A stretch of DNA of 64,000 nucleotides from Sphaerodactylus townsendi (GCF_021028975.2 NC_059432.1:33418001-33482000), one strand, 5' to 3'. Positions 14,209-31,738 are shown, numbered from the stretch's first letter. Program-made: numbers and translations. The notes: a model not told the origin generated them from the letters alone.

Positions 14209-14304
14209 ATGCGGTGGATTTTATTTGCAATATGCTGCCTGTACATCACAATGGAAGTCCAAGGAATTCCTCAAGATGAAAAGCGAATAACTTTAATGAA
14301 TACT
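14209..14304 (+). CDS. Acid lipase paralog A, first coding exon (signal peptide MRWILFAICCLYITMEVQG IPQDEKRITLMNT)
   Basis: aagATG, hydrophobic signal peptide, ends in MNx like LIPF/LIPA-family exon 2, phase-0 donor gtaagt. Confidence 0.85.
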
Positions 14305-14849
14305 GTAAGTAATACAGAGAAGAATAAACATTAAAGTATTTGGATAGAATGTTTTGAAAACCTTTTTTCCTATCTCTTTTTTTCTTTTCTTTTGATTATC
14401 ATTCAGCATTCTAGTTCCTTGTCGGTGTTATGCTTAAAACAGACTGGGGGATCAGTCTGTAGAGTAGCGTAGACAGTTTTGGGTCATTTGTTATTTTTAT
14501 TCTTTCATATTGAAATTAATGTTCGTTGTAGAATGATGTTTTTAAGTGTGCCTTTCCTTTCTGAATGGGGATGAAATTCTCAGGGGCTGAACCTCTCTTT
14601 CAAATATTAGGCAGAAGGGAGGAAGTGTCCCCTTGATACAGGCAATAAATTCTTGCATAATGGATCTGGGGAGGCAAAAATTGACCGCTGAATCACAGGA
14701 TTTAGTAGCATTGCTATCTGTTTTAAGAATAACACTTACTGCCTTGCCTGTGCCAAGATTTTCAGGAAAGCACTGGGGGGGAGGGGGGTTATATAAAGAA
14801 GAGTTTGATTCTATTTCCCAGTTACATTGGGAATATATTTCCTCTGCAG

Positions 14850-14967
14850 ACAGAACTGATCAGATATCATGGATACCCTTGTGAGGAGTATGAAGTTGTA
14901 ACACAAGATGGCTATATCCTTAGTATCTTCCGAATTCCACATGGGAGAAAGGAGAATGCAAGCACAA
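14850..14967 (+). CDS. Lipase A exon ([39 protein letters not shown])
   Basis: Family motif GYPxEEYEVxTxDGYIL..RIP; 118 bp; ctgcag / gtatga. Confidence 0.96.
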
Positions 14968-17179
14968 GTATGACTTTATATTATACAATAACACGGTCTC
15001 CATTGCCCATCAACAGCACTGCTTGCCCTTAACTGCATGCGTGACACTGAAAGTGCCTTCAGTGACACTGAAAGTGCATTTGATGATCACAACAAATGAA
15101 ATCTTGACTTTAGCATGAACGTACAGCATATCGTTAAGTCACTTCTGCAGACACTGCACAGTTTATCTGAAAGCCAAACACTGTGGCAAGGCAAGTCCAG
15201 TTTGGGGGAAGAAGATGTTATTATTATTATTTATTATTTATTAGTTTTATATACCGCCCTCCCCCAGAGGGCTCTGGGCAGTGTACAACATGGAAAATAT
15301 AGACACATGGAAAATGTAGACACAAATAGAGCACATAACAACATACAAATATAAATATATATTAACACGGCTCTATTATAAATCCAGAGGCCAGTCAGTG
15401 TTACCACTGTCCTGGAGAAAAACATTTTTATGGAAGGTGAATTCCACACAGCATAATAATGATGGGTTACATCCGTTATTTTTGAATCTGAGTCTATTTT
15501 ATTCCATTTTTGTCCTTCCATGAGTGCCCGTTTTCCATGAAGAAAATCATCCGTTTTCTTTCTGCTCCTTTGCACCAACCCACTATTTTTTTACAATGCA
15601 AATGTGAAGGCACAAACATCCACAGTCCCCCTTCTGGCCACTCCCACCCTCTGCAAAGAGAATGCTTCCAATTGGTGGAGAATCTACAGCAACCCTGGGA
15701 GACCAAACAGGACCCCCCCCCTCTCCCATTTCTCCAGTGTAGAAAAAAGTTTAGGGCTTTGAAACTATGACAGATGGAAACATGAAGCATGCAACCCCCC
15801 CCCCCCCAGTGTTGTGATATACAAAATAATAAAATCTGTCCCAAAAGGGAGCAAAGTAGTATGCCCCATCCACATCCAAAGGTGTGCATCTGCCTAGCTA
15901 CCTGCTCTGAGCAGCCAAAAATTAGAAAGGAAACATTATGAATCTGTTGCTATACACATTTGGGTGAAATGGTATTTACCAAAAAAAGTGCTTGGGGGAT
16001 ATTTCTGAAATGGTGGGCTATCACACCAATCAGCAATTCAGCAGAAACAAAACTGACATGATGTAAGGTGGGAGAATGGGTGGCAGGGTGGGAATCCATG
16101 CCATTCCCTTGGTAGTGGGTTATACACGGGATTTTTCAAAAACACAATTTTGGCGGTTTTTGAAAAACCCAGGTTGTAGGAAATATAGTGGGTCAATCCC
16201 TCTTTGGAGAAGGGACCCATGGAAAGTTCTCCCCTAAACTGGGATGTTTCTCTCCATCAACTCATTATATTTTTACAGTGCAGAAACTACTGAAGTGTAT
16301 TATCTCCTTGCCAACTGGCTATTTATATACAACTGGCCATTTATATGCAACTTCTTTCAAAGTCACAAGATATTTTTCTCCAAACCAGTTGGCAAACCTT
16401 ATTGAAAAACCTCCCAATGAGGCCAATTTGCATAGAACATTTATTGTTTGGGGGGAGGGGCTTGTTTGCTCCAGAACTAGCCCCTCCTCTCTGGTGCCAC
16501 TTCAGCTATCAGCGAATCTCATATTCTTCCCAGAAAAGATGTAAGCTGCCCCTCTGTGTACTGTTTTACTGTTGTATTTCTATAATGTGATGAAGTAAAG
16601 TTGTTGTTATTCCTCTAAAGAAACAATGTTTAATCCCCCTCTAACAAAAAGCCTATTGGCCCAGTCATGCTACAGTGAAACTTTTCCCCTGAAAATAATA
16701 ATCATAGCCACATATACAAAAGCTTTGAAAGTTATGGAGCCTGCTGTTCCTTTAATGGTGGAAAATGAGCTTGTGAAAAAGGACTTCTGGGAGACAGTTG
16801 AAGAGTTTCCACCATCAGAAGAAACACAGAAAACTTAGTGAGAGAAAAAGGACAGAAAGGCAAGGGCAGAGAGTTCTACATTTGTGAGTCACAGTGATTT
16901 ACATCACATAAGGGACTTTAAAACTGCCAAGGAACTGTGGCTGGGTTTGAGAGAGTTATATGAAAGAAACACTCATAATGAAGGATTGCATTTATCTAGA
17001 AAGTTGTACAGTTTGAAATTAAATGAAGGAGGAGATCTGGAAAAAAACATTTAAGCCATGCAGCAGAATTGATGGATCATTTAAAATACTATAGGCAAGA
17101 AATTTGACGAAGAGGACAAAGTTATTTTAATTTTATCAAGCTACAATTCTTGGAGCCTAAAGATGAGCTCTCTGTGAAG

Positions 17180-30055: not shown

Positions 30056-30192
30056 CACAGAGGCCGTTTCCGCACGGAGGCGGAAGGGGTTGGGTCGGCG
30101 TATTCCACGCTGACCCGACCCCTCTGTGTTGCTGCTACTGTGTTTTAAACTATTTCAATGCATATATGCTTATATTTTATCACTGTATATTG

Positions 30193-30600
30193 CAGTGATG
30201 GCGAACCTTTTCAAGATTGAGTGCCCAAATTGCAACCCAAAACCCACTTATTTATCGCAAAGTGCCAACAGGCAATGTAACCTGAATACTGAGGTTTTAG
30301 TTTAGCAAAAACGGTTGGCTCTGAGGCGCGTATTACTCAGGAGTAAGCTTGGTGAAGCAACCATGCAATGCTTCGAATGGGTGAATCACGACCCTAGGAG
30401 GGTTTACTCAGAAGCAAGCCCCATTGCCAGCAACCGAGCTTACTCCCAGGTAAAGGATCATGCCCAGGCAGCCTAGATGTGTGTGTGTGTGGGGGGGTGA
30501 TTTTCCACCCCTTCCACATGATGAACTCTGTGCGTGCGTGCCCACAGAGAGGGCTCTGAGTGCCACCTCTGGCACCCATGCCATAGGTTCGCTGCCACTG
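30193..30600. mobile_element. Non-autonomous hAT element
   Basis: TIR cagtgatggcgaacct / aggttcgctgccactg; perfect 8-bp TSD gtatattg. Confidence 0.9.
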
Positions 30601-31504
30601 GTATATTGGGTGTTGCCTCTTTTGGCCTTATTGTTCACTGCTCAGAGCCCTTCTGGGGTTGGGTGGTGTAGGAAAATTAATAAATAATAATAATAAAAAT
30701 ATTGTATGCAGCACCTTTTACAAGTAAGGCAGGATTTGGCTAGGGTTGTTCATACCCTGATCACACCCAGGTTAAATTACTCCATGCTCTACATGGGGCT
30801 TCCTTGGCAGTTGGTTTAGAAGCTTCAGTGGTTTGCAGTGTGGCTGTGAAATCCATGGTAGGCACAGTGTTTCAATATTAGAATGACTTCACTGGCTGCC
30901 TATCTGCTCCTGTGTCCAAGTCATCACTCCCATTTAAAGCAATTAACATCTTAGAGCCCAGATAATTAAAGGACAGTGCCTGTCCTCTGAGATCTCTGAG
31001 GCATTGCCCTGTCTCCCTCCTTTTTCAGATGTAAGGCATTAAGCAACTGGGAGCCGGGGCTTTCCAGTAATGGCTCAACTCTCCTCTTGGATCTCCAGTC
31101 TTTCTGACCCTGCCTGCCACCAGATTTGCTGTATTTCTGGCCCTCATCCATCATTTTATTGGAATCAGATTTGCCAACCTCCAGGTGTGGCCTGGTGATC
31201 TCCTAGAATTACAACTGATCTCCAGACTACAGAGATCAGTTCTTCTGGAAAGGGAATCTATGCAATTATACCCCACTGAGGTCTCTCCCCAAACCTCGTC
31301 CTCCTCAGCTCCACCCCCAAATCTCCGGGAATTTCCCAGTCATGAGCCGGCAACCTTAAATGAAATGTTTGGCATATAACATGCCTGATTTTCATTTTAA
31401 CAACCTTGTTGCGTGCCTATATTATAACGTGCTTTTAAAAATGGTAACCAAAAATGTATTTTGTAGTCTCTTTTTTTTATTTTTTTATTTTACTTCTTAA
31501 AAAG

Positions 31505-31738
31505 GTACATCCTCCTGAATACAACGTTACGAATATGAATATATCAACTGCAGTTTGGAATGTTGGAGATGATCCATTTTCTAATCCTGAGGATATTGCC
31601 GTCTTACTCTCTCAAATCACAAACCTCGCATACCACAAGTTTATTCCTGAATGGGATCATGATAGTTTCTACTATCGTCCAGATGCTTATGTTCAAGTGC
31701 ATAGTGAAATCCTTAATATGATCAAGGAGTCTTATTGA
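31505..31738 (+). CDS. Lipase A terminal exon with catalytic Asp (WNVGDD) and His (EWDH)
   Basis: PPEYNVTNMNISTAVW...HKFIPEWDH...DAY.QV..EILNM; TGA at 31736-31738; spliced CDS totals 1179 nt = 392 aa plus stop; AATAAA at 32397 and 32930. Confidence 0.93.
   Translation, partial: VHPPEYNVTNMNISTAVWNVGDDPFSNPEDIAVLLSQITNLAYHKFIPEWDHDSFYYRPDAYVQVHSEILNMIKESY

Follow-up and report, generated by a model that had tools for sequence, protein, structure and literature searches.

The question raised by this locus, which lies in a stretch of 64,000 nucleotides from the gecko Sphaerodactylus townsendi (referred to here as the window), is what kind of protein is made by an acid lipase gene that has an open frame while several of the motifs typical of its family are altered. 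A first-pass annotation of the same DNA had described nine in-frame exons with canonical splice sites encoding a secreted protein of 392 residues, and this description holds: splicing the nine exons between 14209 and 31738 (Table 1) gives a coding sequence of 1179 nt and 392 amino acids with no internal stops, all eight introns are GT-AG, and the product matches the database protein P0001 (NCBI name “lipase member M-like [Sphaerodactylus townsendi]”) letter for letter. The hydrophobic N-terminus makes a signal peptide likely. P0001 scores 77 bits against PF04083 and 70 bits against PF00561, its nine coding exons have the family's phases (the same as those of the paralog models described below), and S169, D338 and H367 align with the triad of human lysosomal acid lipase (LAL) and the gastric lipases, as had been claimed for the Asp and His; by Pfam, fold, triad and exon phases, it is a member of the acid lipase family (LIPA/F/J/K/M/N). 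The seven motifs that had been quoted are all present (QNGL at 80, RGTRWS at 116, GHSQG at 167, KWRRR at 229, PLDGTS at 278, WNVGDD at 333 and HDSFYY at 367), as is the lid pair C242-x8-C251. P0001 thus departs from the family motifs QHG, WxGGxD and HLDF (having QNG, WNVGDD and HDSF), although these are typical rather than absolute for acid lipases, several of the paralogs departing from them too. The neighbouring gene had been taken to be RNLS, and its first exon was indeed found, head to head with the lipase and about 11 kb upstream.

Table 1 Features of the lipase locus and its surroundings. Positions are those of the window except where a genome coordinate is given.
Feature	Position	Strand	Content	Basis
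RNLS (renalase) first coding exon	2731..2859	-	Synteny anchor	Renalase 3QJ4, E 4e-8
Coding exon 1	14209..14304	+	ATG and hydrophobic N-terminus (likely signal peptide)	Splicing
Coding exon 2	14850..14967	+	PF04083 region	Splicing, Pfam
Coding exon 3	21998..22196	+	Oxyanion loop QNGL (H81N private to S. townsendi), RGTRWS	
Coding exon 4	22548..22657	+	DHMA (common to squamate orthologs), nucleophile elbow GHSQG, S169	
Coding exon 5	25384..25520	+	End of core and start of cap	Splicing
Coding exon 6	26298..26441	+	Lid; W230 for the hinge Pro; first lid segment polar; C242-C251 pair; S265 for the proposed pH-latch Asn	
Coding exon 7	26555..26626	+	PLDGTS segment	Splicing
Coding exon 8	29662..29730	+	69 nt; one residue shorter than in LIPA, as in squamate and turtle orthologs	
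Coding exon 9	31505..31738	+	V335, catalytic D338, catalytic H367, D368-S369, H381, stop	
g02-g11 tandem paralogs	G000:C8:33.47-33.86 Mb		Altered elbows in many (GFSQG, GYSQS, GNSQG)	

A structural model of P0001 built with 150 sequences (pLDDT 83, pTM 0.85; a first model from 24 sequences, with pLDDT 59, was discarded) superposes on LAL and the gastric lipases with TM values of 0.85-0.86 (0.85 for 6V7N), so that the comparison with gastric lipase proposed in the first-pass annotation bears out the fold; confidence is low at the lid and the loop that follows it, pLDDT falling below 50 at 232-240 and 260-278.

Close relatives of P0001 are few: among the best 120 of 1680 matches these are only Gekko japonicus P0002 (76% identity) and Paroedura picta P0003 (69%), all others lying at 52% or below, while a search of a representative library gave 144 acid-lipase-like matches, none of them close. 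The three gecko proteins, called the trio in what follows, have open frames, and invariance among them is commoner at family-conserved columns (113 of 140) than elsewhere (122 of 222; Fisher p 5e-7), which upholds the earlier statement that this is not a decaying copy. It is accordingly highly improbable that the gene is a decaying pseudogene or a product of sequence errors: P0001 does have seven private changes at conserved sites, and no ortholog from other annotated geckos appeared among the best 120 of 1680 matches to P0001 or of 1919 matches to its counterpart P0067 from the leopard gecko Eublepharis, but a frame open in three species at 69-76% identity and under significant constraint is hard to reconcile with decay, and across exons 5-7 there are 0 differences from DNA contigs of runs X1-X3 (although these may be the source sample). 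The related organism X4 likewise shows no exon indel among the differences listed for exons 5-7; there are at least four exon differences there, two of them synonymous and the others being N257S and Q263E, which are too few for dN/dS.

In a tree of 41 rows the trio forms a clade with support of 100/100. Placing it among the amniote acid lipases, as had been suggested, gives a position nested at 100/97 in a squamate clade outside LIPM, with members mostly named gastric-lipase-like or LAL-like; this clade adjoins turtle and alligator proteins (also in a 63-row quick tree) and is adjacent to LIPF plus LIPK, the latter with moderate support, 83/83 in the 41-row tree and 90 in a 29-row tree, in trees that are unrooted. 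Identity of P0001 with LIPM was rejected, as a paralog, g12, takes the LIPM place in the trees, grouping with bird LIPM-like proteins at 99/97 (41 rows), and membership of the gecko-specific expansion g02-g11 was rejected because P0001 falls outside that clade in the 63-row quick tree. Constraining the trio to group with the conventional P0067 gives an AU p of 0.42, so that this arrangement is not rejected (29 rows, being the 41-row set minus 12). In a search with P0067, neither Gekko nor Paroedura contributed a conventional member of the clade to the best 120 of 1919 matches. The gene is single-copy in the S. townsendi genome (the next-best last exon is 45% identical), and among the 15 lipase loci modelled there P0001 is the sole member of the squamate gastric-lipase-like clade. 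Since the trio lies within the squamate clade, its grouping with P0067 is not rejected and there is only one copy in the genome, the simplest reading, preferable to the new paralog of the first-pass annotation, makes this gene the ortholog of the squamate gastric-lipase-like gene; an old duplication followed by reciprocal loss is a possible alternative.

The squamate set comprises Eublepharis P0067, Anolis P0051, Podarcis P0033, Varanus P0030 and the snake proteins P0059 and P0266, with turtle P0007 in the sister clade. P0001 is about 50% identical to these, with DHMA/DQMA and the shorter exon 8 region in common, but unlike the trio they keep HLD, the hinge Pro (17/18), Asn250 (18/18) and Leu354 (18/18; mature LAL numbering); no functional study of them was found in the literature. 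As a separate observation, Anolis carolinensis P0051, named gastric triacylglycerol lipase, has Ala as nucleophile (GHAQG), and Sceloporus keeps Ser. Human and dog gastric lipase LIPF (1HLG, 1K8Q) share with P0001 the fold, 48% identity, the triad and the lid disulfide, the lid, hinge and His loop being altered in P0001; both genes stand at the RNLS end of their cluster. The top structural match is human lysosomal acid lipase LIPA (6V7N, E 1.5e-49), also with nine coding exons, which differs in that P0001 carries an exact LIPA loss-of-function change, G342V.

The trio's stem, at 0.61 changes per site in the 41-row tree, is longer by a factor of about 14 than that of LIPA across this species split (0.042), and the path between S. 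townsendi and Paroedura after the split is 0.46, against 0.26 for LIPA; the branch of Eublepharis P0067 is also long, at 0.48. The earlier description “lineage-specific” is upheld. When residues were compared across 332 proteins and 14 paralog models, a wider set that included the fused models P0004-P0006 of 570-620 aa, some changes proved to be common to the trio and rare elsewhere. The usual His-Leu-Asp is His-Asp/Glu-Ser in all three geckos: the trio has D/E/D directly after the His, where 0 of 343 other stretches carry an acidic residue, and then Ser at a position that is Asp in 339 of 343 others. V335 (Val for Gly before the catalytic Asp) is common to the trio and found in 0 of 348 others, and H381 is common to the trio and found in 1 of 338. 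GHSQG and the triad are kept in all three (3/3).

Not all of the motif changes are of this kind. Among the motifs that had been called rewired, the Val of WNVGDD and the acidic residue and Ser that follow the catalytic His are shared by the trio, but QNG (H81N) and R373 are private to S. townsendi, the Thr of RGT is ordinary, occurring in 18 of 235 other stretches including the Anolis and Sceloporus orthologs, and the Asn of WN is as in gastric lipase. The basic KWRRR patch, which had been singled out, was rejected as a conserved feature, since it is absent in Paroedura, and it is not distinctive either, lids with four or five Lys/Arg occurring in four paralogs (g09-g12). The first lid segment of P0001 is the most hydrophilic of 27 compared (-1.61), this being much weaker in Paroedura (-0.24). 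As for the claim that changes are concentrated around the catalytic pocket, some real and rare ones are found there (the two positions after the His, and V335), but enrichment is seen in lid and cap: of 197 sites conserved in 18 orthologs, 35 differ in all three geckos, 18 of 62 in lid and cap against 17 of 135 in the core (p 0.008), and these include hinge Pro214, Asn250, Trp325 and Leu354. At 20 of the 35 (57%) all three geckos have the same new residue, which is no more than the background of 55%, so that most of the new residues show no fresh constraint, and for most of these sites relaxation of the cap would seem to fit as well as new adaptation.

The gene also has neighbours of its own family. 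The S. townsendi genome gives 14 matches to PF04083 and 17 to the last exon, and of the 15 loci modelled 11 have full open frames and four are partial. The ten tandem paralogs g02-g11 fall together in a single clade (98, 63-row quick tree), and no row from another species joins them there. A set of 141 columns was defined by conservation in 90% or more of 114 homologs (best matches, a choice that is biased towards conventional lipases and so inflates apparent rarity, and from which the fused P0004-P0006 were left out). Departures from it number 18 each in P0001 and Gekko, 28 in Paroedura, 17 in the Anolis ortholog and 6 in the genome's own LIPA (g15, about 0.8 Mb away); among the ten paralogs, the nine covered almost in full have 24-34, and g08, which is partial, has 23/103. 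Because the paralogs deviate more, and lose the oxyanion-loop His (in three) or have Ala for the Gly before the acid (in five), motif erosion by itself is ordinary in this cluster, which counts against the first-pass inference as it was stated. Such erosion would also suit a somewhat unlikely alternative, namely that the protein has the ordinary activity of an acid lipase, its substitutions being compensated, and that the changes reflect relaxed selection on the cap within a tandem cluster that evolves fast. The larger counts in g02-g11 (23-34 conserved sites), the long Eublepharis branch and the background-level conservation of stem-changed sites would all be expected from it, as would the 7-13 of 39 human-critical sites altered in g02-g11, against 7 in P0001 and 3-6 in the squamate and turtle orthologs examined, and the roughly 45% activity kept by human P235L and N271H (PMC6852163). 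It accounts less well for the 0 of 14 other cluster models with an acidic residue after the His, Ser at the next position or V335, for the acidity maintained at 368 through exchange of Asp and Glu, or for a stem some 14 times that of LIPA.

Human LIPA variants, mapped onto the gecko proteins through primate LIPA P0300, point in another direction. According to PMC6852163, G342V leaves 1.4% of wild-type activity, N119S 0.9%, H86Y 0.3%, N123D 3.5% and Y388C 1%; the trio carries G342V exactly and Gekko P0002 N119S exactly, while H86, N123 and Y388 are altered in P0001 by residues other than the human variants. Since the trio's Gly-to-Val leaves the human enzyme so little activity, the possibility that activity is weak or has been lost must be taken seriously, and we regard it as unlikely but worth weighing that P0001 is all but dead as an enzyme and persists as a secreted protein that binds or carries lipid, with a structural triad and degraded positioning loops. 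Each gecko has its own private hits at sensitive sites (H81N in S. townsendi, N114S in Gekko, Q285R and D375N in Paroedura), and loss of catalytic residues is tolerated among relatives, as in Anolis P0051 and in g06, which has Asn for the catalytic His. Against this, GHSQG, D338 and H367 are unchanged in three species, seven residues that at the 55% background would all be unchanged about 1.5% of the time (a calculation inflated by the glycines), and the human data are for single mutants without compensating changes: L294S, an exact damaging human variant, is fixed in g05 and g06, whose frames are open.

P0001 is an intact, gecko-specific variant of a known lipase. For the reading preferred here, that the protein is secreted and still hydrolyses esters, though with its gating and substrate changed, the chances seem to us about even; the Anolis ortholog's 17/141 deviations and the larger numbers in nine tandem paralogs weigh against it. 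The squamate gastric-lipase-like gene would have been remodelled on the stem of the three gecko species, with S169 presumably attacking the ester with help from H367 and D338, as in LAL. In PMC7397744, Pro214 and Gly245 are the hinge of the LAL lid, Leu354 is listed in the cavity above the serine, and an Asn250-Asp361 latch closing the lid at neutral pH is put forward as the authors' speculation; PMC7034887 states that the loop after the catalytic His helps to fix it and can touch ligand. Given these roles, loss of the hinge Pro and of Asn250, with a hydrophilic first lid segment, might loosen the closed state, giving weaker binding to neutral-lipid droplets and a lid no longer acid-gated, and Asp or Glu for Leu354 would set a negative charge beside the leaving group. 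An acidic, more polar pocket should suit polar or cationic head groups better than triglyceride or cholesteryl ester, a step that depends on one residue, and low activity on the classical substrates is predicted. A bolder version, that geckos have turned a gastric-type lipase into new chemistry, is quite improbable: here the conserved Asp after the catalytic His would have shifted by one residue so as to enter the leaving-group pocket, and with its acid-gated lid taken apart the enzyme would be a hydrolase or transacylase working at neutral pH on lipids with cationic head groups (e.g. phosphatidylcholine or sphingomyelin), possibly lipids of skin or toe-pad.

Precedents for divergent, redeployed acid lipases from this cluster are the epidermal LIPK/M/N (PMC2394760), which share family and cluster with the present gene, the rodent Lipo/Lipdc tandem copies (PMC2394760, PMC3324826) and a snake venom-gland paralog, svLIPA, active on 4-MU oleate (PMC5010889) though disputed (10.1101/006031); the present gene differs from Lipo/Lipdc and svLIPA in being single-copy and outside g02-g11. 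If P0001 is active, it would be a natural experiment on how an acid lipase tolerates G342V, near-abolishing in human LIPA in the data cited above, and a direct test of the proposed hinge and Asn250-Asp361 pH latch. The analysis also shows the name “LIPM-like” to be misleading and draws attention to a cluster of some 15 lipases in this gecko; a literature search, with most subscription papers outside its reach, turned up nothing published on the gene or on acid lipases of geckos.

Some further features of the region may be recorded. Intron 2 holds, at about 16463-21757, a broken retrotransposon flanked by two direct repeats of about 185 bases that are 82% identical, whose frame fragments look Ty1/copia-like. 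Exons 8 and 9 of an acid lipase, orphaned but with open frames, lie at 44498-45025 (+) in the window and are likely to be a partial duplicate; no convincing upstream exons were found between 31.8 and 44.4 kb, an interval with one 131-base N run. The second lipase, g02, runs from 51102 to beyond 64000 in the window (+; G000:C8:33469102-33489720) with an open frame, an oxyanion loop reading MHC instead of QHG, and changes at 27 of the 141 conserved sites. With its open frame and altered catalytic His, g06 (G000:C8:33613925-33625778) is a candidate inactive lipase, and the last exon of g04 (G000:C8:33563480-33563725) looks frameshifted near its start, through either a pseudogene or a sequence error. 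On the same contig, g13 (33900972-33925504, +) and g14 (34187934-34213275, -) are a near-identical pair in opposite orientation, which could reflect either an inverted duplication of recent date or an artefact of assembly, and outside the cluster, on another contig, there is an acid-lipase last exon at G000:C9:12422859-12423077 (-).
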